This document shows positions 5,415-32,000 of a stretch of DNA of 32,000 nucleotides, one piece after another; within the stretch, counting starts at the first letter, position 1, and every line of letters begins with the position of its first letter. Source of the stretch: Patescibacteria group bacterium (lineage in GTDB: Bacteria > Patescibacteriota > Minisyncoccia > UBA6257 > HR35). Below the pieces are notes generated by a model. It was not told the DNA's origin, ran no database searches, and saw only the letters and a program-made list of their open reading frames with translations. Location: NCBI GenBank assembly GCA_030549845.1, contig JAUQQN010000001.1, positions 90,001 to 122,000 of the forward strand. Direction: 5' to 3'. The translations under genes were made by a program, and so were the position numbers.

Positions 5415-8021
5415 ATGTTTTCATTTAACAGATTTACAATAAAAGCTCAAGAGGCTTTGCAAAAAGCTCAAGATTTAGCATTGAAATATCATCATTCGGA
5501 AATCAAAAGCCTTCATGTTCTCCATTCTTTAATTTCTCAAGAAGATACAATTATTTCCGATATCTTACATGAATTAAAGGTTGATAAAAGTTATCTTCTG
5601 CAAATAATAGAAGAAGAACTTAATAGGATCCCGAAGATTTTTTCTATTACAAATGTAACTCAATTATATTTAGCCCAAGAAACTTTTCAAATCCTAGATC
5701 AAGCAGCTTTGATTGCAAGAAGGTTAAATGATGAATTTATCTCTGTAGAACATATTTTTCTTGCTTTGACAGAAATTAGATCAGTTGCAAGGTATGTTCT
5801 TGAAAGATTTGGAGTTACAACAGAAAGGGTAAGTAAAGTTTTAAGTATTTTGAGAAAAGGACAAAAAATTACTGATGAAAGCCCTGAAACTAAATATAAA
5901 GTTTTAGAGAAATATAGTATTAATTTAACTGAGCTTGCAAGACAAAGAAAGTTAGACCCAATCATCGGAAGAGATAAAGAAATAAGAAGAATAATTGAAA
6001 TTTTATCAAGAAGAACAAAAAATAATCCCATATTAATAGGAGAACCCGGGGTTGGTAAAACTGCAATAGTGGAAGGTTTAGCTCAAAAAATAGTTGCAAA
6101 TGAAGTACCAGATTCAATTAAAGGCAAAGAAATAATATCTTTAGACTTAGGTGCATTAATAGCAGGTGCGAAATATAGAGGAGAATTCGAAGATAGATTA
6201 AAGTCAATTCTAAGAGAATTAAAAGCAAATCCTGGTAAATTTATAGTTTTCATAGATGAAGCTCATACTTTAGTAGGGGCAGGAGCAGCTGAAGGAGCTA
6301 TAGATGCTTCAAATCTTTTAAAACCTTCTTTAGCAAAAGGTGAAATTCAAGTAATAGGAGCTACCACTTTGCGAGATTATAAATTATATTTTGAAAAAGA
6401 TCCTGCGCTGGTGCGAAGATTTCAACCTGTTTTAGTAGAAGAACCTTCCCGAGAAGATGCTATAGCTATTTTAAGAGGGTTAAAAGAAAGATATGAAGTC
6501 CATCATGGAGTTAGGATAGCAGACAATGCGATAATAGCTGCAGTTGATCTTGCTATGAGGTATATTACAGATAGATTTTTACCAGATAAAGCAATTGATT
6601 TAATCGATGAAGCAGCAGCAAGCTTAAGATTAGAAGCAGAAAGTATGCCAACTGAATTGGAAGATATTAAAAAAGAAATTAGAAAAATTGAAATTGAAAA
6701 GGAAGCTTTAATGAAAGAAGAAAACTCTCAAGGGAAAATTAAAGTTTTAGAAAAGAAACTAAAGAAATTAAGGGAGGAAGAAGCTAAGCTAGAAGAACAG
6801 TGGATGAAAGAAAAAGAACTTAAAGAAAAATATACATTTTTGAAGAAAAAATTGGAGGAGCTTCAAAAAGAAATGGACGAAAAGGAAAAAATCGGAGACC
6901 TTTCTCGAGTAGCTGAAATATTATATGGAGAAATCCCCTCTATCAAAAAAGAACTTAGTGAGATCGAGAATTATTTCAAAAAACATAGATTAAAGTATAT
7001 AAAAGAAGAGGTGACAGAGGAAAAAATAGCAGAAGTTGTTGCAAGATGGACAGGTATTCCTGTTGCAAAAATTTTAGAAGATGAAGCACAAAAATTACTA
7101 AAAGCAGAAGAGATTTTGAAGAAAAGGGTTATTGGGCAAGATGAGGCAATATCAGCAGTAGCAAATGCGTTAAGAAGAGCAAGGGCAGGTCTTTCTGATC
7201 CTAAAAAACCAATAGCTTCATTTATGTTTTTAGGTCCTACTGGTGTAGGTAAAACAGAAACTGCAAGAGCATTGGCTGAATTTATGTTTAATGATGAAAA
7301 AGCAATGATAAGATTAGACATGTCAGAATTTATGGAACCACATTCGGTTGCTAAATTAATTGGTTCTCCCCCAGGTTATGTAGGATATGAAGAGGGTGGT
7401 CAATTGACAGAAGCCATAAGAAGAAGGCCTTATAGTTTAATTTTGTTTGATGAAATAGAAAAAGCACATCCAGAAGTATTTAATATCTTGCTTCAAATTT
7501 TAGATGATGGAAGGTTAACAGATAGTAGAGGTTTTACTGTTAACTTTAGAAACACCATAATAATATTAACTTCTAATATCGGTAGTCATTACTTTAGAAA
7601 ATTAGGTTCAATAGGATTTACAAGGGAAGAACAAAAAGAATTTGAGGATTATAAAGATAGAACGATAAAAGCCTTGAAGGATTTCTTTAGGCCAGAATTT
7701 TTAAATAGATTAGATGAAATTATTATATTTAGACCATTAACTAAAGAAGATCTAAAACAAATTGTTGAAATTCAATTAAATAAAGTAAAAGATATGTTGA
7801 TCAATAAAGGAATAAATGTTACCTTTGATGAGAAAGTAAAAGAATTATTAATTGAAAAAGGGTTTGATCCAGAATATGGTGCTAGACCTCTACAGAGAGT
7901 AATTCAAAAACTTATTCTCGATAAATTAGCCCAACAGATAATAGCAGAAAAGATTAAACAAGGACAAAAGCTAACTTTAAAATTAAATGATAAAAACGAG
8001 ATTGAAATTATTCACAAATGA
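5415..8021 (+). CDS. clpB: ATP-dependent chaperone ClpB
   Basis: 868 aa. Clp N-domain, two Walker A motifs ([16 protein letters not shown]), a long Lys/Glu-rich coiled-coil middle domain, and the GARPLQR sensor motif. Confidence 0.95.
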
Positions 8022-8200
8022 AAGAGAAAATTATAAATTATATTAAAAGTTCGGTAACGGAGTTTAAGAAAGTAAAGTGGTTAACAGCAAAAGAAACTTT
8101 AAATTTCACTTTGCATGTAATTTTGTTTACTATACTATTTTCGGTATTTTATGGTATCTTAGATTTTCTATTTTCAAGGTTAATAATTTTTCTCAAGTAG
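8018..8200 (+). CDS. secE: Preprotein translocase subunit SecE
   Basis: 60 aa. EFKKVKWLTAKETLNFTLHVILFTILFSVFYGILD matches the SecE signature (E.KKV.WP...E followed by a single TM). Its ATG overlaps the clpB TGA (ATGA). Confidence 0.75.
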   Translation: MKEKIINYIKSSVTEFKKVKWLTAKETLNFTLHVILFTILFSVFYGILDFLFSRLIIFLK

Positions 8201-9464
8201 AATTTTGAATTATTTGGGGTTTATTAAAAGATTTTTCTACTAAGCCTAAAGATAAAGCAAAATTTAAAGCTTGAGAAAGAAGGGTAGAAATGGCTGCTCC
8301 TGTTATCCCTAAATTTTGTATTAAAATTATGTTCAATATTATATTTAAAACAGCACAGATTGCTGTTAGATAAAAATTAAGCCATTGTTTATTTAAAATA
8401 AATAAAAGGTTGTCTAATAAAATTAAAGAAAATAGAAAAATTAAATTCCAGGACAAAATTTTAAATACAATTATAGAATTTTTATACTCTTCCCCCAAAA
8501 TCCATAAGAACCAATAATCAACTGTAAAATATAAAAATAGTGCCAATAAAAAAGATGAGAAAATAAAACTAAAAAGTACTTTCCTATAAATTATTTTTAA
8601 TCTTCCATAATCAGTCGAGATTTTACTTAAAAATGGAAAAAGTGCTGTTACTGCCAAAGAAGGAATTAATGTTAAATTAAGCATAATTTTAGTAACTATT
8701 GAATAATAACCAAGCTCTTTCATTCCTCTTAAATAACCTAAAATAAGATGATCTGAATTAAAAAATATAAAACCTAAAAAGCCTAAAAACAAAATAGGTG
8801 TTCCTTCTTTTATGTATCTTAAAAATCTATTGAATAAAAAAATAAATTTTAAATTTACCCATCTTTTGTAAACATTCAAAAAACTATAGAAAAAACCAAA
8901 TGTAGCACCCATAAGATAGGCAAGCGCTAGATATAAAACATCTCTTGTTAAAAATACAAATAATATTCCAAAAACTACTGTTGTTAAATTTTCTATTAAT
9001 AAAGATATGCTTTCTATTTTCATTTTTTGAATAGCCCTAAAGTAAATATTTATTAAATCTTTCATGGAATTTAGCAAAAAAGCAAACAGTATTATGGAAT
9101 AAATTGCTTTTGCAGGAGCTTCTTTTAAAATAAAGTAACCAAAAACAGTAAGGAGACTTATAAAAATTATTAATACTATCTTAATAGAGATAATTTCTTC
9201 TAATAATTTTTCTTTGTTTTGTAATATTTGGAAGTTTTTTATAAAAATATTAGAAAGTCCCCAATCAGAAAACATGAAAAAGAAACCAATTATTGAAAAC
9301 ACATATGTAAAGTTACCATATAAATAAGGTCCTAAAATTTTTGCAACAATTAAAATCAAAATTAGTTTTGAAATTTTATTTACAAAAGTAGCAAAGTATA
9401 ACCATAAAGCATTTTTTATAACTACCCATTTAGGGGACAAATTTACATCTTCATATTCGATCAT
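8193..9464 (-). CDS. Polysaccharide/lipid-linked oligosaccharide flippase, MOP superfamily (Wzx/MurJ-like)
   Basis: 423 aa, about 12 predicted TM helices. N-terminus ALWLYFATFVNKISKLILILIVAKILGPYLYGNF is typical of the Polysacc_synt family. ATGA overlap with the truB stop. Confidence 0.7.
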   Translation of the reverse strand: MIEYEDVNLSPKWVVIKNALWLYFATFVNKISKLILILIVAKILGPYLYGNFTYVFSIIGFFFMFSDWGLSNIFIKNFQILQNKEKLLEEIISIKIVLIIFISLLTVFGYFILKEAPAKAIYSIILFAFLLNSMKDLINIYFRAIQKMKIESISLLIENLTTVVFGILFVFLTRDVLYLALAYLMGATFGFFYSFLNVYKRWVNLKFIFLFNRFLRYIKEGTPILFLGFLGFIFFNSDHLILGYLRGMKELGYYSIVTKIMLNLTLIPSLAVTALFPFLSKISTDYGRLKIIYRKVLFSFIFSSFLLALFLYFTVDYWFLWILGEEYKNSIIVFKILSWNLIFLFSLILLDNLLFILNKQWLNFYLTAICAVLNIILNIILIQNLGITGAAISTLLSQALNFALSLGLVEKSFNKPQIIQNST

Positions 9465-10372
9465 AGTATTTCAAAATTATAGTAAATATTAATGGGTTTT
9501 CTGAATAAGATATCTAATTTTTCAACTTTTGCCAATGTTGGGCCTATTCTTATTTCTTTAATGAAATTTTGTAAATCTTTTTCTTTTCCTTGAACAATTA
9601 TTTCAACTGTTCCATCAGGTAAATTTTTTGCGTATCCTAACAAATTATATTTTTTTGACAATCTTGAAGCAAAAAATCTAAAACCTACCCCCTGCACTCT
9701 TCCATATACTTTGATATAGCTTTCTAAATAATCTTTGTTTATATCTTCAAAAGTTAAGGCTTCTTCTAATTTATATTTATTTATTTCTGTTCTTATCAAA
9801 TTTTCTAAATAGGCACCACAACCAAGTTTTTCTCCTAAATCATTCGCAAAAGATCTTACATAGAATCCAGAACTGACTTTTAATTTTAATTTTAATATCC
9901 CATTTATCTTATCAAAATCTAAACATTTTATTTCATAAACCTTCACACTTCTTTCAGGTATTTCTACATTAATGCCTCTTCTTATCAATTTATACAATGG
10001 AACTCCCTTAATTTTGATTGCAGAATAAAGAGGCGGCTTTTGCTTAATTTCTCCTTCAAAAAGCTTAAGAATATCTAAGATTTTTTCCAAAGAAGGAATA
10101 GGTTTTTCTATCTTTTGAATATTCCCTTCTTTATCAAAAGTATCAGAAATGTAACCTAATTTAATTTCTGAAATATAAGTTTTTATACTGTTTTTAAGAA
10201 AATCATTTAAATTTTTTGTATATCTTCCGATTCCAAGTATTAAAAGTCCGGAGGCTAATGGATCCAAAGTACCACCATGTCCTACTTTTTTATTAGTAAT
10301 TTTTTTGAAAAATTCCACTATTTGATTTGAAGTAAATCCTACAGGTTTATTAAATAAAACTATGCCCTCCAT
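9461..10372 (-). CDS. truB: tRNA pseudouridine(55) synthase TruB fused to a C-terminal acylphosphatase domain
   Basis: Start taken at MEGIVLFNKPVGFTSNQIV. Catalytic motif GHGGTLDPLASGLL. The last 85 aa carry both acylphosphatase signatures: VYGRVQGVGFR and GYAKNLPDGTVEIIVQG. Confidence 0.85.
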   Translation of the reverse strand: MEGIVLFNKPVGFTSNQIVEFFKKITNKKVGHGGTLDPLASGLLILGIGRYTKNLNDFLKNSIKTYISEIKLGYISDTFDKEGNIQKIEKPIPSLEKILDILKLFEGEIKQKPPLYSAIKIKGVPLYKLIRRGINVEIPERSVKVYEIKCLDFDKINGILKLKLKVSSGFYVRSFANDLGEKLGCGAYLENLIRTEINKYKLEEALTFEDINKDYLESYIKVYGRVQGVGFRFFASRLSKKYNLLGYAKNLPDGTVEIIVQGKEKDLQNFIKEIRIGPTLAKVEKLDILFRKPINIYYNFEIL

Positions 10373-10385
10373 GTTAAAAATTAAT

Positions 10386-10401
10386 TTTATAATATTATAA
10401 A
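10386..10401. promoter_or_regulatory. Perfect 16-nt palindrome TTTATAATATTATAAA giving back-to-back TATAAT boxes for the divergent truB and MFS genes
   Basis: Read directly. TATAAT on + at 10388-10393 lies 8 nt before the ATG at 10402. TATAAT on - lies at 10399-10394, with 21 nt between it and the truB ATG at 10372. Confidence 0.35.
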
Positions 10402-11607
10402 ATGGATAAGGTAAAATATTTGCTAATATTTGCTTTAGTATATTTTTTCTCTCCGAATGGATTATCATCTTTACCAAACTTAACTTTAAATTTTTTACTA
10501 AAAGAAACATTTAAACTTACTGCTACTCAACTTGCTTATTTTAGTGCTATCACTATATTAGGTTGGGCCTTAAAGCCACTATGGGGATTAATCTCAGACT
10601 TAATTCCTCTTTTTGGTAGTAAAAGAAAAAGTTATCTAATAATCACTAGTTTAATAGCTGCATTTTGTTGGTTTCTTTTATCTAGTACTTCAAACTATAG
10701 TGTTTGGATTCTCTTAGTAATTCTCACAATTTCTTCTTTTGCTTATGCCTTTCAAGATGTCGTAACTGATGCTTTAATGATCGAAATTGGCAAAAAAGAA
10801 AATAAATTAGCAGAATTTCAAGCAATTCAATGGTTAGGGGTATCTATAGCACAGATAATTACAGGATTTGCTGGTGGTTTAGCTGCAGAAAAATTAAGGG
10901 CTCAAACTACTTTTCTATTAGCAGCATTTTTCCCCTTAACTATTGCTATTTTGACATCTATTCTTTTAAGAAAAATAAAAGAAGAACCGATTCTAAGGTT
11001 TCAAGAATTTAAAGAAAATTTCAAATTAGGGGTTTGGAATAAAGAGTTTCTTTTGGTGAATTTATTCTTATTTCTTTGGAGATTTTCTCCTTCTTTTGGT
11101 GCTCCTATGTTTTATTATCAAGTTGATGTTTTAAAATTCTCAAAAGTCTTTCTTGGTTTTTTGTCATCCTTAGGTGCCATTGGTTCAGCTATTGGAACAA
11201 TTATTTTTAGCTTTATTTCAAAATATGTTCCAATGAAAAAACTATTATTTTGGTCAGTATTTTTAGGAGGAATATTAACTTTTTGGGGTTTAATTTATCT
11301 TACGCCCTTTATTAAAAATAATTTAACCTTAGCAAAAGTTTTGGCAATCGTTGATAGTATCCTCTTTGGAGTATTAGGAATAATTTTCTTTTTAACAATG
11401 CTAACTTTTGCTGCACAAAAAACAAATCCTAAGCTTGCTGGAAGTATATTTGCTTTTATTACTTCAGTTATGAATTTAGGACTTATGGGTTCAGAAGCTT
11501 TAGGTGGTTATTTGTTTTCAAAAGTTGGTTTATTTTGGCTTATAGTTATTTCAGGAATCACAAGTTTAGCAATTTTAATATTTATCCCATTCTTAAAGAT
11601 TGATTAA
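10402..11607 (+). CDS. MFS transporter, folate-biopterin transporter (BT1)-like
   Basis: 401 aa, about 12 TM helices. N-terminal motif ILGWALKPLWGLISDLIPLFGSKRKSYL resembles the BT1 family signature (PW..KPL.G..SD..P..G.RR.Y). Confidence 0.65.
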   Translation: MDKVKYLLIFALVYFFSPNGLSSLPNLTLNFLLKETFKLTATQLAYFSAITILGWALKPLWGLISDLIPLFGSKRKSYLIITSLIAAFCWFLLSSTSNYSVWILLVILTISSFAYAFQDVVTDALMIEIGKKENKLAEFQAIQWLGVSIAQIITGFAGGLAAEKLRAQTTFLLAAFFPLTIAILTSILLRKIKEEPILRFQEFKENFKLGVWNKEFLLVNLFLFLWRFSPSFGAPMFYYQVDVLKFSKVFLGFLSSLGAIGSAIGTIIFSFISKYVPMKKLLFWSVFLGGILTFWGLIYLTPFIKNNLTLAKVLAIVDSILFGVLGIIFFLTMLTFAAQKTNPKLAGSIFAFITSVMNLGLMGSEALGGYLFSKVGLFWLIVISGITSLAILIFIPFLKID

Positions 11608-12295: not shown

Positions 12296-13117
12296 TTAAG
12301 ACTTTTTAGTTATAAATTTAATTATTTTTTTAAAATTTGCTCCTTTTCTTACTATTTCTATTTTTTTGTCTTTTAACTTAATTAGAGTTGATGGCTTGTT
12401 TTTTGTTTTTCCTCGATCAAAATAAACTACGTGATTTCCAAAATATTTTTTAGCCTCGCTGATGGTTTTTGCAGGTTGATACCCTTCCCAATTTGCTGAA
12501 GGAGCTACTAGAGGACCAGAAATTTGTAAAATCTTCCTTAACCATGCCGGCTTTGGTAATCTAAAAGCTAGAGTTTTTGTGCCTCTATGTAGATATTCAA
12601 ATTGTTTAATTTTCTTTTTATCCCTAATATCTAAAATTATAGAAATTTCACCTGGCCATAACTTTTGCAAAATTCTTAACTCATTTTTATTAGGTTTAAC
12701 GCCGAAAATTTTTAAATCTTCGAAACTTGAAATTAAAATAATCATAGGTTTTAAGGGTGATCTTTTTCTCAATTTATAAATTTTCTCAACGACTTTTCTT
12801 TTTAAGGCACTACCACAAATTCCATAAATAGTATCGGTTGGCATAACTGCGATTACTCCTTCTTTTAGAAGTAAAGCAAGTTTTTTCCAGGAATTTTTAA
12901 AAGAACCCTTGTATCCACCAACAGTATAATCATTTCTAATAACTCTATGACAAGGAATTTCTGGATTTTTATTTTTAGCTAAAATATTAGCAACCGCTCT
13001 AAATGACTTAGGTCTTTTTATAATTTCAGCTATTTCTTTATATGTCCTGAATTCACCTTCTTTAATTTTTTTAACAGCTTCCGAAATTTTTTGTTTAAAA
13101 GATTTTTCAGTTTTCAT
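12296..13117 (-). CDS. Fusion protein: MGMT/Ogt-type alkyltransferase DNA-binding domain (active-site PCHRV) plus TsaC/YrdC/Sua5-type threonylcarbamoyl-AMP synthase domain
   Basis: N-terminal about 85 aa: FRTYKEIAEII...NPEIPCHRVIRNDYTVGGY. Remainder: VIAVMPTDTIYGICG, KLRKRSPLKPMIILISS, APSANWEG, PSTLIKL (YrdC-fold motifs). Confidence 0.8.
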   Translation of the reverse strand: MKTEKSFKQKISEAVKKIKEGEFRTYKEIAEIIKRPKSFRAVANILAKNKNPEIPCHRVIRNDYTVGGYKGSFKNSWKKLALLLKEGVIAVMPTDTIYGICGSALKRKVVEKIYKLRKRSPLKPMIILISSFEDLKIFGVKPNKNELRILQKLWPGEISIILDIRDKKKIKQFEYLHRGTKTLAFRLPKPAWLRKILQISGPLVAPSANWEGYQPAKTISEAKKYFGNHVVYFDRGKTKNKPSTLIKLKDKKIEIVRKGANFKKIIKFITKKS

Positions 13118-13147: not shown

Positions 13148-13180
13148 TTGACATAAATCAATTATAAAATTTTGTATAAT
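13148..13180 (+). promoter_or_regulatory. Candidate promoter: consensus TTGACA (13148-13153) and TATAAT (13175-13180)
   Basis: Both hexamers are perfect, but the spacer is 21 nt, which is non-optimal. The -10 box ends 6 nt before the ATG at 13187, implying a leaderless mRNA. Confidence 0.3.
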
Positions 13181-13186
13181 TTGGAA

Positions 13187-14026
13187 ATGGAAAAGATCAT
13201 TATTAAAAAAAATGGCGAAAGAGAAAAATTTAATGAAGAAAAATTTTGCAATAATTTAATAAATTTAGGATTAGATAAAGAAGCTGCTTCTAAAATTTGT
13301 AAAAAAATTTATGAAAAGATACCTAATGAAATTTCAAGTTTTCAGCTTTTTAAAATCACATTGAATGAACTAAAAAAAGAAAATATCGGGTTAGCATTAA
13401 AGTACAACCTAAGAGAAGCCATCTATAAATTAGGACCAACTGGTTTTCCTTTTGAAAAATATTTTGGGAAAATTTTAGCACATTATGGTTATGAAACTTT
13501 CGCAAACTTTTGGGTTGATGGAGCCTGTCTTAATTATGAGATAGATATTTTAGCGATGAAAGATAAAGAAAAGTTTATAATAGAATGTAAATATCACAGA
13601 GATAGAAATATAAAAACAGATCTTAAAACAGTGCTTTATGTTTTTGGAAGATGGGTAGACATAAATGAAAAATTTCCTGAGTTAAAACCTTGGCTTGTTA
13701 CAAATACAAAAATAACTTCAGAAGGAATTGAATTTGCTAATTGCAAAAAAATAAAAATTACTGCTTGGAAATTTCCAGAAAATGAATCTTTAGAAAAATT
13801 AATTGAAGCTAAAGCTTTATACCCTATTACAATTTTAATTAGAACTCCTTTTAATATAATTAGAAAATTAATAGAAAATAATTTTGTTTTGATACAAGAC
13901 TTTAATTTTTATAGCTTAGAAGATATTCACAAAAGAACAAATATAGATTTACAAGTTTTAAAAAAAATAAAATCTGAAATCGATGCTTTATTAGAGTTTA
14001 ATGAAAATTTAGTATCTTCGGGCTGA
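13187..14026 (+). CDS. ATP-cone domain protein fused to a PD-(D/E)xK (restriction endonuclease / Mrr_cat-like) domain with a C-terminal helical tail
   Basis: MEKIIIKKNGEREKFNEEKFCNNL is a typical ATP-cone start. YEIDILAMKDKEKFIIECKYH fits the D...E.K nuclease motif. The listed start at 13172 is a TTG; the ATG at 13187 is preferred. Confidence 0.65.
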   Translation: MEKIIIKKNGEREKFNEEKFCNNLINLGLDKEAASKICKKIYEKIPNEISSFQLFKITLNELKKENIGLALKYNLREAIYKLGPTGFPFEKYFGKILAHYGYETFANFWVDGACLNYEIDILAMKDKEKFIIECKYHRDRNIKTDLKTVLYVFGRWVDINEKFPELKPWLVTNTKITSEGIEFANCKKIKITAWKFPENESLEKLIEAKALYPITILIRTPFNIIRKLIENNFVLIQDFNFYSLEDIHKRTNIDLQVLKKIKSEIDALLEFNENLVSSG

Positions 14027-22178: not shown

Positions 22179-23909
22179 TTATTTCATTAATCCTTGAAGT
22201 ATATTCCCCAAAAGCTGAAGTAATAATTTCATATTTTCATCCTCTAAACCTACACCTGGAGCTTTTCTAGGAGCTGGTGGAAAGTGCTGATCTATATCGC
22301 GAGGGAGAATAAATGAATATTTCAATTCTTCTCTGCCTGTAAATCTTTCTGATGGAATATAGTTCCAATTTATATTAACAACCATCTTTCTTCCCCAGCC
22401 AAAATTATTACCAAAGGCCCTTATATTGTTGCAGATCATTATTTGATTTTTATTTCGAGAAAGATCGAAGTATAAAGTACCATAACATCTATCCATAGTT
22501 AATTTCCCAGTAGATTGGACTGTCTTTTTAGGATCAAACTTTAGCACTAAAAAGCCCCATTCCGCTGGATGTCCAAATTTCTTTATTAAACTATCAACAT
22601 CTCTTGGGCAAGTCCCATTGCAATCTTTAGTAATTTGTTTCTTTTGGCCGCTTGGATGCTCCAAACCAACATTTATTTTATTAAATCTCCCTGTAAATGA
22701 TGTGAAAAATACAGATACTTCTTTTGTAGAAGGATCAACATACCAGACTAATGCAGGATATTCTTCTGCACCAACTGTTGCTTCTGATTTTGCATTTGGA
22801 TAATAAGGAAGATGAATTGCATATCTATGAGATTTATCAGTTCCTGTGCTTTTAATTTTTAAGTCAGGAGCTTCAATACTTGTAAATTCTACTGAGAAGT
22901 AACCTTGATTATATGGATAATCTTTATCTTGATAGTCATAAGTATCTACATAAAACTCTACAGTGTGAGTCCCATTAACATCTGATAAAACTACATCAAT
23001 ACTTGGAGATAAATATTGCATAGAGGATGTCGAAGGAGTTCCTTTAATATTTTGATCTACTAAAACATACACATTTTTCACCTTAGCTTCTAGATTAAAT
23101 TTAAGGCTTAATCTAACATTATTTTGTTCAAAATTTTTGCCAACAAAAATAAATTGATCTACTTTATAATCTTTAAGCCCTCCGTCTAATCTTCTAACTT
23201 CTTGGGTCCTTATTTGAGGTATTATTTCAAGTTTTGGTTTTGGTTTTCCTTTTTCAATTAAAACAACTTTTTTAGCTATACCTTGTGAAAATCTTACTAA
23301 AACTATATTCCCTTCTTGTAACACTTCATTTGGCTTTAGGCTACTCCCTTTTGTATTTTCAAATTTAGTTTTTTGATTAAATTTAATAATAGGACCATTA
23401 ACAAGCTTAAAATAATTTCCTCCTACATTTTCTATTTCACCATCCCTATAGTTTTCATCAGGAGATAGAACTAATTTAAATTGCTTTATAGAGATATCGC
23501 TTCCTATCACTTTTATTGATCTACTTTCTTCAAATTTTGCTGGTAAACTTTGAAATTCAAATAAATCATCAGGCAAAGCAGCCCAAGCCATTCTCAAAAA
23601 TTCTTGACTATATGAGGAAGTTCCAAATGGTATTAATGATTCCTGAAGAGGTATAGAAACATTCAACATTCTCCATTCTTTTGATTTTGGATTATTTGGC
23701 TCTTCAAATACTACACCTAAAGAAAAATTAACATCTTTTTCACCATAAGATATTGCTTTAAGAAAACCTTTCCCTGATATTATAACATTATCAACATTAG
23801 AAATATATCTATCAATTAAAAGATAAGAGCCTTTATAAGTTTGGGCAATAACTATTGAACCCATCAAAAGGATTGCAGATAATGATAAAATATAAATTAA
23901 TTTTTTCAT
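22179..23909 (-). CDS. Secreted protein of unknown function (576 aa) with Sec signal peptide
   Basis: Signal peptide MKKLIYILSLSAILLMGSIVIA|Q. No motif I recognise. Has its own 175-nt upstream region and its own terminator hairpin. Confidence 0.7.
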   Translation of the reverse strand: MKKLIYILSLSAILLMGSIVIAQTYKGSYLLIDRYISNVDNVIISGKGFLKAISYGEKDVNFSLGVVFEEPNNPKSKEWRMLNVSIPLQESLIPFGTSSYSQEFLRMAWAALPDDLFEFQSLPAKFEESRSIKVIGSDISIKQFKLVLSPDENYRDGEIENVGGNYFKLVNGPIIKFNQKTKFENTKGSSLKPNEVLQEGNIVLVRFSQGIAKKVVLIEKGKPKPKLEIIPQIRTQEVRRLDGGLKDYKVDQFIFVGKNFEQNNVRLSLKFNLEAKVKNVYVLVDQNIKGTPSTSSMQYLSPSIDVVLSDVNGTHTVEFYVDTYDYQDKDYPYNQGYFSVEFTSIEAPDLKIKSTGTDKSHRYAIHLPYYPNAKSEATVGAEEYPALVWYVDPSTKEVSVFFTSFTGRFNKINVGLEHPSGQKKQITKDCNGTCPRDVDSLIKKFGHPAEWGFLVLKFDPKKTVQSTGKLTMDRCYGTLYFDLSRNKNQIMICNNIRAFGNNFGWGRKMVVNINWNYIPSERFTGREELKYSFILPRDIDQHFPPAPRKAPGVGLEDENMKLLLQLLGNILQGLMK

Positions 23910-25531: not shown

Positions 25532-25843
25532 ATGGAGGAGCAAAAAGGACCTAAGCTTATAGAAGTAAACTGTGGAGAATTTAAAATAAGGGTTTTCTAT
25601 ATAAAAGGCTTAAAACCTGAAACAGAAGTTATTCAAGAAATAATTGAAGAATTAAAAAAGCTAGGAGAAAAAGAGATAGATGACTCAATTTTCATATTTA
25701 AGAAGATTGAAGAAAAGGAAAGAAAGAAATATTATGAGTGTAATATTGTAATTAGAAGGCAAATTAGATATACTTTCACATTGGAATATGATTTAGAATC
25801 TAAAAAGTTGCTTGAAAAAACATATAAAAAAATAGAAGAATAA
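25532..25843 (+). CDS. Small Lys/Glu-rich hypothetical protein (103 aa)
   Basis: The only sizeable ORF in the gap between aspS and the tRNA pair. No recognisable motif. Coding status uncertain. Confidence 0.4.
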   Translation: MEEQKGPKLIEVNCGEFKIRVFYIKGLKPETEVIQEIIEELKKLGEKEIDDSIFIFKKIEEKERKKYYECNIVIRRQIRYTFTLEYDLESKKLLEKTYKKIEE

Positions 25844-25914
25844 TGCGGGGTGGTGTAAGGGTAGCACACGAGGCTCTGGACCTCGTAGTCCTGGTTCGAA
25901 TCCAGGCCCCGCAG
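25844..25914 (+). tRNA. trnQ: tRNA-Gln (anticodon CUG), no encoded CCA
   Basis: Hand fold: acceptor TGCGGGG/CCCCGCA (U1-A72), U8, D-stem GTGT/GCAC, anticodon stem CGAGG/CCTCG with loop CTCTGGA, T-arm CCTGG-TTCGAAT-CCAGG, discriminator G. The U1-A72/G73 combination is typical of bacterial tRNA-Gln. Confidence 0.85.
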
Positions 25915-25919
25915 ATAAA

Positions 25920-25991
25920 GGGCTGGTAGCTCAGCGGAAGAGCGCTCGCTTCGCAGGCGAGAGGTCAGGGGTTCAAATCCCCTCCAGTCCA
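25920..25991 (+). tRNA. trnA: tRNA-Ala (anticodon CGC), no encoded CCA
   Basis: Hand fold: acceptor GGGCTGG/CCAGTCC containing the G3:U70 alanine identity pair, D-arm GCTC/GAGC, anticodon stem CTCGC/GCGAG with loop TTCGCAG, T-arm AGGGG-TTCAAAT-CCCCT, discriminator A. Confidence 0.9.
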
Positions 25992-26015
25992 AATTTTAAT
26001 TTCTTTAAATTTTAC

Positions 26016-26807
26016 CTATTTTATAATTAATGTACCTTGAAGGTCTGTCCTCCAATATTTTATATTTAATTTATTTAAAATATTAACCACTTCTTTATGA
26101 GGGTGGCCATATTTATTTTTGCCAACTTGAATAATTGCAAAAGAATTAGCAAAGAGTCTCAAAAAATTTTCCGAAGATGAGTATTTTGAGCCATGATGGG
26201 GTATTAAAATAAAATCACTTTTTAAAAATTCCTTATATTTATTAAACAAATATTCTTCCACCTTTTTATCTATATCTCCAGTTAGTAAAAAACTCTTATT
26301 ATTCTTAAAAACTTTCAAAACTAATGAATTTTGGTTTTCTGTCTTAAATAATTTGGGTGCCGGATTTAATACATAGATCTTTTCATAATTTGTTTCTATC
26401 AAATCTTCTTCATCTAAAGCCAGTAGAGGTATTTTACTTTCTTTGACTTTCTCGATAAAGGTTAAATAACCACTTTCTTCACTTTTTACTGGTGAAATTA
26501 AAATAATTCCAATTTTATATCTTTTTAAAATATCAAAAATGCCGCCATAATGATCTTTATCAGGATGAGAAATTATAATAACTTCTATTGTTTTATCATA
26601 AAAAGGCATTAATTTTTTCAACTCATTTAATGCTTTATAACCATAAGGGCCTACATCATACAAAACTTGTAATTTAGGATTATTTATCAAAACACTGCTT
26701 CCCTGCCCTATATCTAAAAATGCAATATAGCTTTCTTCTTTCAACAAATTAAAAATAAAAATTAATAGGAATATGTTAACTAAGCTTAAAATTAAAATCA
26801 ATCTCAT
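26016..26807 (-). CDS. comEC: ComEC C-terminal metallo-beta-lactamase domain encoded as a separate ORF with its own N-terminal TM helix
   Basis: IAFLDIGQGSSVLI, IISHPDKDHYGG, IPHHGS and GHPH match the ComEC/Rec2 MBL domain. Overlaps the upstream ORF by 32 nt in the +1 frame. Confidence 0.8.
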   Translation of the reverse strand: MRLILILSLVNIFLLIFIFNLLKEESYIAFLDIGQGSSVLINNPKLQVLYDVGPYGYKALNELKKLMPFYDKTIEVIIISHPDKDHYGGIFDILKRYKIGIILISPVKSEESGYLTFIEKVKESKIPLLALDEEDLIETNYEKIYVLNPAPKLFKTENQNSLVLKVFKNNKSFLLTGDIDKKVEEYLFNKYKEFLKSDFILIPHHGSKYSSSENFLRLFANSFAIIQVGKNKYGHPHKEVVNILNKLNIKYWRTDLQGTLIIK

Positions 26808-28059
26808 TTTTATTTAATTTATAAATCCAAAGAAAAAGAATTAAATAAATAAAAATCAAAGCACCTAAAGGAAGATATATATAAATTTTAGGGAAATATG
26901 AAAATGGTTTAAGAAGAGTCAAAAATAGTTGAAAAGGAAAATTTAAAATATTATTTAGTGGGCTAAAAAGAATTAAAAATATTCCTAAAAAGCCTAATAG
27001 CATCAAGAAAGGAATAAAAGGCACAAAAATCAAATTTGTAAATATAGATGATAAATTCATTTCTCCAAATTTATACCATATAAGAGGTAGTACCATGATT
27101 TGAGCTGATATAATCTCAGAAAATATTTTGAGTTTTAAAAAACTTCTTAATCTTTCTTCCAAATATAAAATTCCTAAAACTCCTAAAAAAGAAAGATGAA
27201 AAGCAAAATCACTTACTAAAGCCAGAGGATTAAAAATTCCTATAAAAAATACAGGTAATATAATTAGGTTTCTTTTTAAAGGTATTCTACCGATTGTTTT
27301 AGCTAAAATCAAAAATATTGACATTATACCTGCTCTTACCACAGACGATTGAAAACCTGCAAAAACTATAAAAAACAAAATAAAAATTATTGAAAAGAAA
27401 TTTATTAAAAATATAGAGGGGAAAATAAATTTAAATAAATGGTATGAGAACAAACTTAAAATAGTTAGGTTAAACCCTGACATTGCTGTAATATGAGAAA
27501 GACCGGTCTCTTTTAATAAATTTCTTATCTCATTATCTCTTATTTCCTCTCCATATAAAATACCACTTATTATCTCTGCAGTGGATAAAGAGTAATTTTT
27601 ATAAATAATTTCATTGATTTTATCTTTTAAATTAAAAATAGGAGTAAATGGTGATTTTTCGATTTTTTTTATGCTTTTAAAAAATATTTTGTTTTCAAAA
27701 ATCTCAAAATCTCCATATATTTTATCTTTTGGATTTACTTTTAAATGATAAGGTAAATAAACTATATAAGGTTCAGCTTTATAATAACTTAAGAATCTTT
27801 TATAGCTTGTGGGAGAAATTTCTCTATCTAAAATCAGAAATGCTTGACTTGAAGAAACTATATGAAAATAAAAGGCATAAAAATAACCGCAAATAAAAAG
27901 CAGTATTAAAACCAAAGAAAAGAAGGGTCTTTTGAAAATAAAAAATAAAATTAAATAAATTGTCAAAAGCAGCAAAAAATTTAATCCTCCGTAAAAATAA
28001 AAAATAATTCCTAAAATAAAAAATAAAACAGAATAAAAGAAAACATTAGCTAATATCAT
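26776..28059 (-). CDS. comEC: ComEC/Rec2 N-terminal (DUF4131-like) plus competence channel domain
   Basis: Polytopic membrane protein with LKETGLSHITAMSGFNLTIL (competence-domain motif GlsHllaiSG). ATG at 28059; the listed start at 28074 is a TTG. Confidence 0.8.
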   Translation of the reverse strand: MILANVFFYSVLFFILGIIFYFYGGLNFLLLLTIYLILFFIFKRPFFSLVLILLFICGYFYAFYFHIVSSSQAFLILDREISPTSYKRFLSYYKAEPYIVYLPYHLKVNPKDKIYGDFEIFENKIFFKSIKKIEKSPFTPIFNLKDKINEIIYKNYSLSTAEIISGILYGEEIRDNEIRNLLKETGLSHITAMSGFNLTILSLFSYHLFKFIFPSIFLINFFSIIFILFFIVFAGFQSSVVRAGIMSIFLILAKTIGRIPLKRNLIILPVFFIGIFNPLALVSDFAFHLSFLGVLGILYLEERLRSFLKLKIFSEIISAQIMVLPLIWYKFGEMNLSSIFTNLIFVPFIPFLMLLGFLGIFLILFSPLNNILNFPFQLFLTLLKPFSYFPKIYIYLPLGALIFIYLILFLWIYKLNKNEIDFNFKLS

Positions 28060-28060
28060 C

Positions 28061-29479
28061 TTAGGGACCACCAAAAATTCCTCTAACTGCAGCTAAAATG
28101 CCAGTTATTACTAAAAGAACAAAATAACCAATTACAGCCCATTTAATATATTCTGACCCAGTTTGTATATTTTTTAAATTAACCGGGGCTAATAAATAAA
28201 ATATTCCACCTATTATTAAAAGTAGAATAAATAATGTAGGAGCAAGTTTAAAAACAAAATTTTTTATTTCATCGAATATTCTTTCTGGAGTAATGCTTGC
28301 AAAACTACTTGTACCTTGATGTTCTTCACTAAAAATAATTGGTGGAATCACAGCAATAGGTTGTTCAGTTGTAGTTACTTCAACTTTTGCTGGTGTAATC
28401 TTCATATTTAACCTTCTTACTTGCTCAATGATTTCCTGGGTATCTGAAGCATAAGGCTGAAATATATCTTTTTCAAATTCTTGTACGTTTTTCCCTGCCG
28501 GAGTTTCACCTTTTATTATCACAGAAAGTAATAGATGGCATGTTGATTCTTGAGTTGTACCAGTCATATAAAGATTTTTATACCGAGCTTTTATATCTTT
28601 AACTTCTTGTACCAATGAATAAAAATAGTTGAGACTATTTAAATCTTTTACTGCCTTATAAACTTCATAGGTTTTTGAGGCTAAATCTTTAACCTGTTGA
28701 CCAAGTTCGTAGTAATTTTTTATCAAATCTTGAGCCATAGAGTATAATTTAGATAAATTTTCTCCGTGTTGGTTTCTTAATTTTTGATAATCAAACTCAT
28801 ATACCATATTTACACTATAAGATGGTTGTATCCCTCCTCCAATGGATTCTTTCCATTTTTTAGTTATAATACCAGTATTTAAACCTTCGTTTATCAAAGA
28901 TTGGACATTAGTATTTCTAATTAAGTCAGGATAAAAAGGAGTGTTATTTACAAAACTTTGTAATACAATAACACAAGCATTAGGTTGTTTTAACATTTTT
29001 TCTACACTATCTGAAAAATAAGGATCTTTACTTGTTATCCATTGGATTAGTTTATCGATTGAAGAATATTGAACTCCAGAAATGATTTTTCTAGGCCATT
29101 CAAATACAAAAACTAATTCATCTAAGGTATCCACTTGTTGAGAAATTTTATCAATTAAATTATCAATTTCTTCTTTAGGAGCACAATAGTCTTTATTTTT
29201 GTAGGTAGATTGTAAATACTTTCCCCAACCATCTAAATTATGGAGCCATAGGATACCTAAAAGATAATCTGTATATAATGATGGGTCTGGGATATAGTCA
29301 CTCCAAATTAGATATTCTTGTTCAGAACATTTTTTTCCTTTTGCTTTATTCCATAATTTTTGAAAATATTCTTTTGACGATTCTATTTGAGCATGAATAA
29401 CATTAGAAAAAACAAAAATTAAAAATATTAACAAAAATAAGAGTATAAATCTGTTATTTTCTATCCTCTTGCTAGCCAT
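28061..29479 (-). CDS. Secreted 472-aa protein: large ectodomain with a coiled-coil VKD[LI] repeat and a C-terminal two-TM pilin-like hairpin
   Basis: Signal peptide ...SNVIHA|Q. Repeats QQVKDL / AVKDL / EVKDI at aa 261-296. The C-terminus IKNFVFKLAPTLFILLLIIGGIFYLLAP...QTGSEYIKWAVIGYFVLLVITGIL is paralogous to the two downstream-numbered small ORFs. Confidence 0.6.
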   Translation of the reverse strand: MASKRIENNRFILLFLLIFLIFVFSNVIHAQIESSKEYFQKLWNKAKGKKCSEQEYLIWSDYIPDPSLYTDYLLGILWLHNLDGWGKYLQSTYKNKDYCAPKEEIDNLIDKISQQVDTLDELVFVFEWPRKIISGVQYSSIDKLIQWITSKDPYFSDSVEKMLKQPNACVIVLQSFVNNTPFYPDLIRNTNVQSLINEGLNTGIITKKWKESIGGGIQPSYSVNMVYEFDYQKLRNQHGENLSKLYSMAQDLIKNYYELGQQVKDLASKTYEVYKAVKDLNSLNYFYSLVQEVKDIKARYKNLYMTGTTQESTCHLLLSVIIKGETPAGKNVQEFEKDIFQPYASDTQEIIEQVRRLNMKITPAKVEVTTTEQPIAVIPPIIFSEEHQGTSSFASITPERIFDEIKNFVFKLAPTLFILLLIIGGIFYLLAPVNLKNIQTGSEYIKWAVIGYFVLLVITGILAAVRGIFGGP

Positions 29480-29880
29480 TGTATTAATTCCATGATTTTT
29501 TCAATTATAAATAAAATTATAAAACCTATAATTATCCAAAGTAAAATTGTTTTTCCTTGTTGAATCAAATCTTGTTTAAAGGGACTTATAACCAAAAGCC
29601 CTGCTACATAGGTTAAACCTATAATGAATAAAATGACACCAAGATATCTTAACGCTCTTGTTACTGTTTTTATGCAATTTGTAATTTTTTCTAAAGGTGT
29701 ATCACCTGATAAACATTTCACATCTGCAGATGGCCTCAAGAGATCATAAAAATACCTCCAAGCATCCGGAGAAGACGGGAATATATTTGAATCCGAAGAG
29801 TTACTTTGTTGAGCAAAAATTAAATTTAAAAATCCTAACAAAAAAATAAAAAATATTAAAAAAACAAGCGTTTTTTTCAT
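29461..29880 (-). CDS. Small secreted membrane protein, VirB2/TrbC (T4SS pilin)-like architecture
   Basis: Signal peptide ...LNLIFA|Q, a Cys pair, then TM1 (LGVILFIIGLTYVAGLLVI), loop QQGK, and TM2 (ILLWIIIGFIILFII). Confidence 0.55.
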   Translation of the reverse strand: MKKTLVFLIFFIFLLGFLNLIFAQQSNSSDSNIFPSSPDAWRYFYDLLRPSADVKCLSGDTPLEKITNCIKTVTRALRYLGVILFIIGLTYVAGLLVISPFKQDLIQQGKTILLWIIIGFIILFIIEKIMELIQWLARG

Positions 29881-30227
29881 TTTACAAATAATTTTGGCCT
29901 TAAAAAGTCTAATATTAGATCAAAAATAACTCCTGCTAATAATAAAATTACATAATAAACTAATGAATCAACCATAAGTCTTTTACCTTGATCTAACCAG
30001 GCTCTATTATACCCGCCTAGCATTACCATAAATGCACCAACCAAAGACGCGATTGCTGCTATCCAATAACCGAAAATTAACATCGCTCTTATTACTCTTT
30101 GTAATGTTTTGACAAATTCGCCCCATGTACAGTCTAATCCTTTACATTTAACTATAGGAATAGTATCAGTTTGTGCAAATGTTAAGCTTATTAAAAAAAT
30201 TAAAAACAAAAAGTAAAATTTTTTCAT
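29877..30227 (-). CDS. Small secreted membrane protein, VirB2/TrbC (T4SS pilin)-like architecture
   Basis: Signal peptide ...LISLTFA|Q, a Cys pair (KCKGLDC), then TM1 (IFGYWIAAIASLVGAFMVML), loop DQGK, and TM2 (LVYYVILLLAGVIF). ATGA overlaps at both ends. Confidence 0.55.
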   Translation of the reverse strand: MKKFYFLFLIFLISLTFAQTDTIPIVKCKGLDCTWGEFVKTLQRVIRAMLIFGYWIAAIASLVGAFMVMLGGYNRAWLDQGKRLMVDSLVYYVILLLAGVIFDLILDFLRPKLFVK

Positions 30228-31447
30228 TTTATAAAAATTTTATTAAATTGCAATCTTGTTAAAATTAACCTTGCATTTTCTCGATCTTCGAGCCATTTAT
30301 CAACAATATCTTTAAAAATACCTTCTGCATAATTTCTATTAAATTCAGTAAAATCACTACCGATTAGCAAATCTTTTGCTATTTCTCTTTTTTCTCCACT
30401 TAGTTCATCAAAGACATCTTTTCTTATAGGAAGCAAGTTAAAATCTCTTATAAAGTCTTTATAATTTTCATCTAAGATTTCTAATGCCTTCCATGCGAAT
30501 TTATGTTTCCCTTGTTTTGGTACTGCAAAGCTATAAATTTTTAAATAATTTGTTTGATCTAGTCTACCTGAAAATTTAGGAAATTCAGTTATTCTAAACT
30601 TAAGCCTTCTATTTATTTCTTTAATTTTTTCAGTGTCAGAATAAAATCCGAAGGCAAAAACAACCTTACCTCTTCCAAATTCTTCTAAAGAATTACTATT
30701 TCCGTAATCCCAAGAATATAAATTTGAGGTTTTATCAGCAAACTGGGTATAGAATTCTACAGTTTTAGAAAAATTATTTAAATTTTTATATCCTTTCCCA
30801 TGTAAATTTCTGTGTATGGTTATAAATATTTCATAAAAATTCTCAATATTATTTGATCTACCTAAAGCTACAGGAATTATATTTTTTAAAAATGGATTTA
30901 CTTTAATACCTTGTATTGTTTTTATCAATTCTTCAAATGTTCTAGGTGGGTTTATTATTCCCAAAATATCCAAAAATTCTTCATTAGAGAACATAACAAG
31001 AGTATCAAAACTTACTGGATAGTTCAAAAGCCTATCAGAAAGAACTAAACTTTCTTCAGGATATTTTTCTTTCTTTATCTTTTCACCTGAGTATTCTTTA
31101 AAAATATTTTTGTTTTCTTTTATAAAATTGTTATCAACATAGACTAAATCTGGTATATTCCCTGCTGCTATTTCTTTCAAAAGATTTTCTCTTATATATT
31201 CAACAGGTTTTTTTATTGTTTCTACTTTTATACAATAAGCTGAAAAAATTTTTTGTATATTTGTGAATTTTTGATCAGAAAAAGGAGATAAAATTCTTAA
31301 AGTTATATTATAGCAAGGAAGAGTTTGTTTTTTAGGCTTTGAAATTTTTCCTAGAACATAGAAAGAAAAAATTATCACAAAAATTACTGCACCAAGAGCT
31401 ATTTGAGCGATTCTATTATTTTTTATTCTTTCAATTATCTCCTCCAT
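30224..31447 (-). CDS. Membrane-anchored extracellular solute-binding-protein-like protein (SBP family 1 pattern)
   Basis: N-terminal TM helix. LLKEIAAGNIPDLVYVDNNF and YPVSFDTLVMFSNEEFLDILGIINPPRTFEELIKTI resemble the MalE-type SBP lobes. No permease or ATPase genes lie adjacent. Confidence 0.6.
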   Translation of the reverse strand: MEEIIERIKNNRIAQIALGAVIFVIIFSFYVLGKISKPKKQTLPCYNITLRILSPFSDQKFTNIQKIFSAYCIKVETIKKPVEYIRENLLKEIAAGNIPDLVYVDNNFIKENKNIFKEYSGEKIKKEKYPEESLVLSDRLLNYPVSFDTLVMFSNEEFLDILGIINPPRTFEELIKTIQGIKVNPFLKNIIPVALGRSNNIENFYEIFITIHRNLHGKGYKNLNNFSKTVEFYTQFADKTSNLYSWDYGNSNSLEEFGRGKVVFAFGFYSDTEKIKEINRRLKFRITEFPKFSGRLDQTNYLKIYSFAVPKQGKHKFAWKALEILDENYKDFIRDFNLLPIRKDVFDELSGEKREIAKDLLIGSDFTEFNRNYAEGIFKDIVDKWLEDRENARLILTRLQFNKIFIK

Positions 31448-31467
31448 CTAATTTATTTTACAACTAT

Positions 31468-31983
31468 TTATTTTACAACTACTAATAAATAATAATTTTC
31501 TCCTATAAATTTTTGGAATTCAATTTTTTTGTTTTTAACATGAAAATACGCTCTTATAGCCTCTAAGCTTACTGGAGTTCCGTAAAGAAATGGTAATTTC
31601 TTAGTAGGTTCTAAGATTATCAAATATCCCCCATTTTTCAAAACCCTTAAAGCTTCATCTAAAATTTCTTCATAATTTTCATTTTGGAATAATAGTTGGC
31701 TTATAAACACAACATCAAAAAAATCATTTTCATAAGGCAACTTTTTTACATCTCCTTTATAAAATACAACATTATCTAAACCCAAAATTTCTGTTAATTC
31801 TTTTGCTTCATTTATTGCATCTTCTAAAATATCAATGGCATAAACCTTTCCATATTCAACTTTTTTAGAAAGAAGGCTTGTAAAATATCCTCCGCCACAT
31901 CCCAACTCTGCAACTTTATCACCTTTTTTGATATAGAACCTTGAAGAAAGTTCTTCGATTATCTCTTTTGGATTCAAAAACAT
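31468..31983 (-). CDS. Class I SAM-dependent methyltransferase
   Basis: SAM-binding motif I VAELGCGGGYFT, acidic post-I AIDILEDAI, and LKNGGYLIILEP (Methyltransf_11/25-like). Confidence 0.8.
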   Translation of the reverse strand: MFLNPKEIIEELSSRFYIKKGDKVAELGCGGGYFTSLLSKKVEYGKVYAIDILEDAINEAKELTEILGLDNVVFYKGDVKKLPYENDFFDVVFISQLLFQNENYEEILDEALRVLKNGGYLIILEPTKKLPFLYGTPVSLEAIRAYFHVKNKKIEFQKFIGENYYLLVVVK

Positions 31984-31995: not shown

Positions 31996-32000
31996 AAACT

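Follow-up and report, generated by a model that had tools for sequence, protein, structure and literature searches.

The window analysed here is a stretch of 32,000 nucleotides (nt) from a Patescibacteria group bacterium (GenBank assembly GCA_030549845.1, contig JAUQQN010000001.1, positions 90,001 to 122,000 of the forward strand). Close to its end, seven co-directional open reading frames (ORFs) on the minus strand encode a methyltransferase, a protein resembling substrate-binding proteins (SBPs), three proteins resembling type IV secretion system (T4SS) pilins and the two parts of the DNA-import protein ComEC. An earlier note on this DNA, made from the sequence alone, had proposed that the string is a single module in which T4SS-type pilins are hard-wired to ComEC. 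All seven ORFs lie where that note had placed them; the string, however, combines two units that are each conserved independently, a coherent five-gene cassette and a split ComEC, which are joined in one Paceibacteria/Parcubacteria clade. The features are as follows, in the direction of transcription, with lengths in amino acids (aa), TM denoting transmembrane and MBL metallo-beta-lactamase.

31468..31983, minus strand: class I S-adenosylmethionine (SAM)-dependent methyltransferase, 171 aa, first gene of the five-gene cassette
30224..31447, minus strand: SBP-like protein, 407 aa, membrane-anchored, MalE-type
29877..30227, minus strand: pilin-like protein A, 116 aa, with signal peptide, Cys pair and two-TM hairpin
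29461..29880, minus strand: pilin-like protein B, 139 aa, with signal peptide, Cys pair and two-TM hairpin
28061..29479, minus strand: pilin-like protein C, 472 aa, whole ORF
28394..29479, minus strand: N-terminal part of pilin C, aa 1-362, signal peptide and strain-variable ectodomain
28061..28393, minus strand: C-terminal module of pilin C, aa 363-472 and stop, an invariant linker of ~35 aa and a VirB2-like hairpin ending in GGP
26776..28074, minus strand: ComEC channel ORF, 432 aa from the TTG or 427 aa from the ATG at 28059, Competence domain
26016..26807, minus strand: ComEC MBL (nuclease) domain ORF, 263 aa, Lactamase_B, with an N-terminal TM helix

The junctions between these genes agree with the earlier description. 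The methyltransferase and SBP genes are separated by a 20-nt gap, ATGA overlaps join SBP to pilin A and pilin A to pilin B, and pilins B and C overlap by 19 nt; pilin C and the channel ORF are separated by 1 nt if the ATG at 28059 is used or overlap by 14 nt if the TTG at 28074 is used, and the channel and MBL ORFs overlap by 32 nt. This tight spacing is no more than chance for this genome and is undistinctive, because, of the 20 remaining pairs of co-directional neighbours, 14 overlap or are separated by 22 nt or less, unrelated genes among them; a polysaccharide flippase gene and truB form such an unrelated pair, yet they overlap by 4 nt. The genome in the window has a G+C content of 24-35%. 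A scan for promoters and terminators gave counts at the level of chance and was uninformative, and the sole matches in an Rfam scan were three tRNAs.

Related loci, designated here by L numbers, were sought using the 472-aa protein and the SBP as anchors, and their contexts were read with genes mapped by phmmer. A word-index search with the SBP found only nine proteins, and the wider survey was performed by pattern scans. The sources of the homologues are named Parcubacteria, Paceibacter, Pacebacteria and Minisyncoccia, all of which belong to Patescibacteria (candidate phyla radiation). The order methyltransferase, SBP, pilin A, pilin B and pilin C was found in every locus that is long enough, in about 16 distinct lineages and down to 26-31% SBP identity (L013 and L027), and the methyltransferase lies immediately upstream of the SBP at all related loci, even at L013, L014 and L027, which are distant. 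Pilins A, B and C are one-to-one orthologues across the loci and are homologous to one another. A purely accidental grouping of seven functionally unrelated genes, brought about by the compactness of the genome, is highly improbable. Tight packing of unrelated genes is usual in the window, and in the clade MscS, an M50 protease and a beta-CASP nuclease likewise keep their synteny with the cassette; but the five-gene order persists to the lowest SBP identities while the flanking genes change, and no complete locus lacks any of the three pilin paralogues.

The adjacency to ComEC has a narrower distribution. Pilin C is followed by ComEC-MBL in the window, L033, L016/L006, L008, the L003/L018-L022 group, L024, L004, L002, L031 and the fragment L011; ComEC also follows pilin C in the fragment L009, but is frameshifted there. 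In every complete locus of this clade with both genes intact, the pilin C stop and the ComEC start overlap by at most 1 nt or are at most 5 nt apart; the adjacency spans at least nine lineages, between which the identity of ComEC drops to 46-56%. In L005 and L028, which form a sister clade, the cassette is instead followed by HSP20-HrcA-GrpE-DnaK without ComEC, and its upstream neighbour in L005 is M50; a third sister-clade locus, L025, ends inside pilin C. GyrA lies upstream of the cassette in both L013 and L027, with a PaaX-like gene downstream in the former, a radical SAM gene downstream in the latter and no adjoining ComEC in either. In a neighbour-joining tree built from simple distances over 836 columns of the methyltransferase, SBP, pilin A and pilin B, the ComEC-linked loci were monophyletic in 198 of 200 bootstraps, with L005/L028 as their sister and L013/L027 outside.

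ComEC has its own neighbourhood. The L005 genome carries ComEC-MBL-AspRS-ribosomal operon-SecY on the same 40.6-kb contig as the cassette, which lies beyond the far side of the ribosomal operon, ~12 kb from ComEC. The order is ComEC-MBL-AspRS in L029 and, with one gene interposed before AspRS, in L030 (38% ComEC identity), both without pilin genes, and in L032 (9303-11473; Parcubacterium, 31% ComEC identity) ComEC starts on the last base of NrdG in the order NrdD-NrdG-ComEC. The last arrangement either juxtaposes DNA import with dNTP synthesis or is mere compact packing. Judging from the arrangements in L005, L030 and L032, the stable partners of ComEC are the MBL ORF and AspRS, followed by the ribosomal-protein operon in most loci that reach far enough. 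The conservation of the pilin-ComEC adjacency thus holds within one clade; the sister clade and outgroups lack the adjacency, which is most simply explained by a single rearrangement in the ancestor of the clade that has it. The hard-wiring of the pilin module to ComEC is not supported: the cassette occurs without ComEC in L005, L028, L013 and L027, and ComEC-MBL-AspRS occurs without pilins in L029 and L030.

Both ComEC identifications were upheld by Pfam, in which the channel ORF matches Competence (PF03772; 121.2 bits, cut-off 23) and the MBL ORF matches Lactamase_B (48.5 bits, cut-off 22.7). The channel ORF also matches TIGR00360 (61.7 bits, cut-off 36.5) and aligns with positions 100-349 of TIGR00361, approximately its middle, and the MBL ORF, which has a TM segment at residues 1-24, aligns with positions 429-663 (E 5e-37), approximately its C-terminal third. 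The two ORFs overlap by 32-44 nt, and usually by exactly 35 nt, in all relatives carrying the MBL ORF, including L029 and L030. ComEC is a genuine and stable split gene that encodes separate channel and MBL polypeptides; a sequencing or assembly frameshift was rejected, since the same split is present at every related locus carrying the MBL ORF. The OB-fold domain DUF4131 (PF13567) gave no match in the window ComEC protein and is present in more distant ComEC relatives (38% identity or less). Separately, on the short contig L009 (537-1821) the channel gene is broken into ORFs of 195 and 282 aa, probably by a frameshift. The conserved split between channel and nuclease is a small added point for models of DNA import.

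The first gene of the cassette matches Pfam Methyltransf_31/11/25 with E values down to 9e-26, and its NCBIfam matches are sub-threshold and only ArsM/UbiE-like. The 407-aa protein matches SBP_bac_8 (PF13416) at 41.6 bits (cut-off 27). Kyte-Doolittle hydropathy gives it a single N-terminal TM anchor at residues 11-38; no lipobox was read from its sequence, which contains a conserved Cys pair (C45 and C72). Its AlphaFold2 (AF2) model has a predicted local distance difference test (pLDDT) value of 77, and the Foldseek matches of this model are sugar SBPs (E 1e-17 to 1e-14, TM-score ~0.6-0.7), with 4qsd at the top (E 1.4e-17, TM-score 0.67-0.71; Atu4361, with sucrose or maltotriose bound). The SBP-like call is borne out by the Pfam and Foldseek matches, and the model indicates a true MalE-type, two-lobe class-I fold. 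The genes that adjoin the SBP, both here and at all related cassette loci, include none for an ABC permease or ATPase. In L031 (6504-7737; Parcubacteria KatS3mg095) the SBP gene consists of two overlapping ORFs (255 and 171 aa) in an otherwise intact cassette, which would reflect either a frameshift error or a pseudogene.

Hydropathy agrees with the layout that had been described for the three middle proteins. On the Kyte-Doolittle scale each of them begins with a signal-like segment and has two TM segments towards its C-terminus, matching a Sec signal peptide followed by a two-TM hairpin with a short basic loop. In the window, pilin A matches TrbC at 15.3 bits (cut-off 27.9, E 0.024), pilin B matches PF18895 at 20.2 bits (cut-off 26.6, E 6e-4) and aa 399-463 of pilin C match PF18895 at 24.3 bits (E 3e-5), all of which are below threshold. 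Matches are clearer in the orthologues from related loci, counted at E of 0.01 or less: PF18895 was found in 12 of 12 orthologues of pilin B (best E 1.5e-9), ten of which also match TrbC, in all 29 members of the pilin C family (best E 1.3e-7) and in four of 13 orthologues of pilin A (best E 4.3e-6), and pilin C of L027 reaches 34 bits, above the cut-off. Furthermore, hhalign linked the A family to the B family (97% probability, E 4e-11) and the B family to the pilin C C-terminus (94% probability, E 2e-7). These profile matches and family links argue that the three proteins are VirB2/T4SS_pilin (PF18895/PF04956) members at the family level, in line with the T4SS-type pilin call of the earlier note. 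That note had also allowed for unrelated families such as holins; a holin or other phage membrane protein identity was rejected, as the small ORFs had no PHROG match. A sequence-profile search of the pilin A and B families against the PDB gave no meaningful match. The signal peptides of A, B and C have an A|Q-type end, with the Gln invariant in the A and B families, in which the hairpin is preceded by conserved Cys pairs. Cleavage before a Gln likewise occurs in Agrobacterium VirB2, which is a lead rather than a test.

Pilin C differs from A and B in its large head. In an alignment of 29 homologues the last ~110 aa are nearly frozen and the ectodomain (~330-375 aa) is hypervariable. Between L016 and L006 the neighbouring genes have 91-100% aa identity, the last 100 aa of pilin C have 100% and the ectodomain has 27%; among L003, L019, L021 and L022 the neighbours have 93-100%, the last 100 aa have 98-99% and the ectodomains of differing head types have 28-33%. 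At the DNA level, L016 and L006 are 98.6% identical until 33 nt into the gene, show nothing detectable for ~1.1 kb and are again 98% identical from 333 nt before the stop, and the same sharp boundaries are seen in L003, L019 and L021; the DNA flanking the exchanged ectodomains is 97-99% identical between strains, and the proteins of the flanking genes are 96-100% identical. The heads fall into at least seven groups without any BLASTP match between groups (E above 1e-3), and near-identical strains differ in group, whereas one group is common to the window, L002, L003, L006 and L008, lineages down to 38% SBP identity. The sister clade without adjoining ComEC is alike in this respect, since L025 and L028 have neighbours that are 78-97% identical and heads that are 29% identical. 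The ectodomain is recombinationally exchanged on a conserved anchor.

Two other accounts of this variation were considered. A diversity-generating retroelement is an unlikely source, as a ~1.1-kb segment is replaced by unalignable sequence rather than point-mutated, and no reverse transcriptase turned up among the ORFs scanned. The heads are also unlikely to be assembly chimeras, as the same pattern is present in independent JGI, ENA, NCBI and Logan assemblies. A tblastn search of the 10 kb on each side turned up no silent donor copies of the head.

The AF2 model of the window pilin C has an overall pLDDT of 83, with mostly 85-97 for aa 35-360, and predicts an alpha/beta head (~aa 35-230), three long helices packed as a bundle (~aa 231-361), a low-confidence linker (pLDDT ~50-65) and a hairpin of helices 398-430 and 443-469. 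Foldseek comparison of AF2 models, which the earlier note had proposed, was informative for the SBP and gave nothing significant for pilin C: against the PDB and BFVD no match fell below E 0.07, and VirB5/TrwJ scored E 0.8 with a probability of 0.11. A search of the C-terminal module against 1.84 billion cluster representatives returned 187 proteins at E of 1e-3 or less and 47 at 1e-10 or less; the latter are mostly 300-540 aa long, with the module C-terminal in all of them. Pilin C belongs to a small, lineage-restricted family. The linker, PIAVIPPxxFSxEHxGTxSxAxITPERIFxEIxxF (window 28290-28393, aa 363-397), is almost invariant over head types, and the protein always ends in G-G/A/S-P; either the linker or this GGP-type end could be a processing or docking motif. 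Linker and hairpin together have ~70-74% identity and are more conserved than pilin A or B.

The machinery expected beside T4SS pilins was sought around the cassette. As had been stated, no VirB4-type ATPase or VirB6 is in view: VirB4, VirB6 and VirB3 were found neither among the scanned window ORFs nor in the 10 kb either side of L001-L005, L027, L031 and L033, and type IV pilus or Com pseudopilus genes were absent from the window ORFs. A ComB-type apparatus has a VirB4-like ATPase with VirB3 and VirB6-10, and only VirB2-like genes were present in the window and the flanks of its relatives. A conventional T4SS just past position 32000 would, according to the earlier note, have made comEC a chance neighbour. 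A Logan contig that shares the gene order of the window, carries an identical copy of the 472-aa gene and reaches ~4 kb beyond the window encodes a beta-CASP MBL nuclease, then an M50-like protease and MscS, upstream of the methyltransferase, and a T4SS there was rejected on this contig and in the relatives, with the beta-CASP nuclease, M50 protease, MscS and DUF763 in its place. No match to these genomes, and hence no VirB4 status, was contained in the supplement of PMC12102498.

The nuclease upstream of the methyltransferase (L001 2720-4066, and present in all clade members) is itself nearer to the aCPSF1 and type VII CRISPR Cas14 profiles than to RNase J, with an NCBIfam aCPSF1/Cas14-like match of 384 bits that is below the cut-off. 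It is absent from the cassette neighbourhood of the sister clade, in which a 586-aa RNase J precedes ComEC (L029). In L027 a PilB-type (T2SSE) ATPase is encoded ~8 kb upstream of the cassette, and the GyrA directly upstream of the cassette (5756-9448) is interrupted by an intein that includes a LAGLIDADG homing endonuclease.

The proposal that had motivated this analysis, a minimal ComB-like uptake machine, can now be considered for a single clade, in which the SBP and the VirB2-like trio would capture DNA and hand it to the split ComEC in a monoderm. The close adjacency of pilin C and ComEC over at least nine lineages is consistent with such an arm, as are the absence of type IV pilus and Com pseudopilus genes from the window, the precedent of T4SS-ComEC cooperation in H. 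pylori ComB (PMC12857230) and the location of T4SS loci beside comF, recG and radA in ABY1 Patescibacteria (PMC12102498). However, the sister clade and two outgroups conserve the cassette just as well without ComEC, and ComEC keeps its linkage to AspRS without pilins; no nearby VirB4-type ATPase would power uptake, the SBP fold is sugar-binding rather than DNA-binding, tight spacing is the norm and ComEC overlaps the unrelated NrdG elsewhere, and wholesale replacement of the head is no obvious trait of a DNA receptor. The proposal is unlikely even in the one clade to which it could apply, and the positive evidence for it is the adjacency.

A second alternative dispenses with a pilus. The hairpin proteins would form a T4SS-independent membrane hetero-oligomer that anchors the variable protein and docks the SBP, and that serves as a receptor or uptake system for host saccharides. 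T4SS genes lie near no locus, the trio is fixed at 1:1:1 in contrast to the variable arrays of 2-11 genes near virB4 (PMC12102498), SBP and pilin A are tightly coupled by their ATGA overlap, and the conservation of the pilin C linker and hairpin suggests specific protein contacts. Nevertheless, all three proteins fall in the T4SS_pilin/TrbC family, whose characterized members polymerize, the cassette has no ABC permease, ATPase or other energizing component, and in ~40% of the Patescibacteria assemblies that encode both VirB4 and a VirB2-like pilin the pilin gene lies away from virB4 (PMC12102498), so that such a separation is not unusual. A membrane complex of this kind is a tentative possibility, with a better claim than the ComB-like arm.

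The reading that we favour, with moderate confidence, is that the cassette encodes a surface structure for contact or adhesion with a polymorphic head, and that its link to ComEC is lineage-specific co-transcription at most. In this scheme the first unit would comprise a cytoplasmic SAM methyltransferase, an anchored MalE-fold binding protein and three VirB2/T4SS_pilin paralogues. The hairpin proteins would be exported by Sec and would co-assemble, either into a filament of the VirB2 type, assembled by a T4SS whose genes lie elsewhere, or into a membrane-embedded oligomer, and either assembly would display the variable head on the cell surface. In solved structures of conjugative pili both termini of the pilin hairpin face outward, and therefore an N-terminal fusion would be surface-displayed. 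The head may contact a variable partner, be it a host-cell surface or a phage or predator, and we propose that whole head alleles are swapped on a frozen anchor because the head meets such a partner; the SBP probably binds a saccharide as a co-receptor or sensor. The second unit, the split ComEC with its channel and exported MBL nuclease, would perform ordinary import of single-stranded DNA. In the window clade the cassette lies directly upstream of ComEC and is probably co-transcribed with it, an arrangement that would be needed by neither unit and may be neutral.

Several observations weigh against this surface-contact reading. All three pilin-like copies in the window score under the Pfam gathering thresholds, and VirB4, VirB6 and VirB3 were not seen within 10 kb either side at any locus. 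Furthermore, the neighbour-joining tree rests on simple distances and 836 columns, and the constant spacing between pilin C and ComEC, despite ComEC identities of 46-56%, could reflect selection for co-expression. A bolder form would make the cassette a contact organelle of T4SS-type pilins, in which interchangeable, horizontally shared heads on a tip or surface subunit set host or partner specificity in Paceibacteria and, in the window clade, the co-transcribed ComEC couples partner contact to DNA import. If true, pilins and ComEC would form a pathway distinct from the type IV pilus/Com route and also from the ComB route of H. pylori, but we consider it unlikely.

Downstream of the string the window contains tRNAs, AspRS, a 576-aa protein, a ribosomal-protein operon, SecY and housekeeping genes. 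The 576-aa ORF (window 22179-23909, minus strand), between tRNA-Trp and AspRS, belongs to no Pfam or NCBIfam family and has a weak DUF5666 match only; an unannotated 572-aa ORF occupies the corresponding position adjoining AspRS in the closest relative, L033. A listed 86-aa ORF (window 25732-25992, minus strand) overlaps tRNA-Gln and tRNA-Ala on the opposite strand and is almost certainly no gene. Three unusual fusions were also observed: TruB with a C-terminal acylphosphatase domain (9461-10510), Sua5/YrdC with an N-terminal MGMT-type DNA-binding domain (12296-13117) and an ATP-cone with an Mrr-type restriction endonuclease domain (13172-14026).

Most Patescibacteria are uncultured and apparently live attached to host cells. 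A conserved cassette with an exposed domain that is exchanged wholesale among strains that are otherwise identical is a concrete candidate for a determinant of host range or phage avoidance, and its conserved flanks allow head alleles to be typed, so that the cassette can be tracked in metagenomes. The comparison also warns against inferring function from tight spacing in compact genomes; the pilin-ComEC 'machine' dissolves when sister lineages are compared.

Among known systems, canonical ComEC/Rec2 (TIGR00361; OB, Competence and MBL domains in B. subtilis) shares with the window both the Competence and MBL domains in canonical order; here, in contrast, they are two overlapping ORFs, the MBL protein has its own TM helix and OB/DUF4131 was undetected in the window copy. 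The H. pylori ComB T4SS, the model on which the earlier note had drawn, resembles the string in that ComEC shares an uptake pathway with ComB2, which is VirB2-like (PMC12857230). It differs in having homologues of VirB3, VirB4 and VirB6-10, none of which are encoded within 10 kb here, and in its diderm envelope. A further difference is that the ComEC adjacency here is limited to one clade; to our knowledge, H. pylori comEC is not adjacent to comB. The variant pilin paralogues and VirB5-type tip adhesins of host-adapted T4SSs (Bartonella and the VirB2 paralogues of Anaplasma, cited in PMC12102498, and R388 TrwJ/VirB5) likewise present variable surface parts on a conserved T4SS scaffold, which are read as devices for host range or immune evasion. 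Tip adhesins of the TrwJ/VirB5 type share a helical ectodomain, but here it is fused to a VirB2-like hairpin instead of being a separate protein, and one domain is replaced allelically at a single locus, in place of paralogue amplification.

The closest likeness is to the VirB2-like pilin arrays of Patescibacteria, of which 441, with 2-11 genes each, are known from 383 assemblies (PMC12102498, PMC10633639) and which S. epibionticum requires to grow as an epibiont (PMC10633639, PMC12102498); comEC of the same organism is required for transformation and dispensable for growth (PMC10633639, PMC12857230). These arrays of the chromosomal T4SS, among them the essential one of S. epibionticum ML1, and the cassette have in common the families PF18895/PF04956, the phylum, tandem divergent paralogues and the lack of a nearby relaxase or coupling protein. 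The cassette differs in being a fixed one-to-one trio that does not adjoin virB4 and always follows a methyltransferase and an anchored SBP, and in that its third pilin has a large, strain-swapped ectodomain. These distinguishing features are unmentioned in the papers on pilin arrays (PMC10633639, PMC12102498), and a literature search found no paper on the cassette, on a partner that is an SBP or a methyltransferase, on a pilin-ComEC link or on the head polymorphism. The cassette is best filed as a variant of the Patescibacteria VirB2-like pilin arrays, with the strain-level replacement of its exposed domain as its most interesting property.

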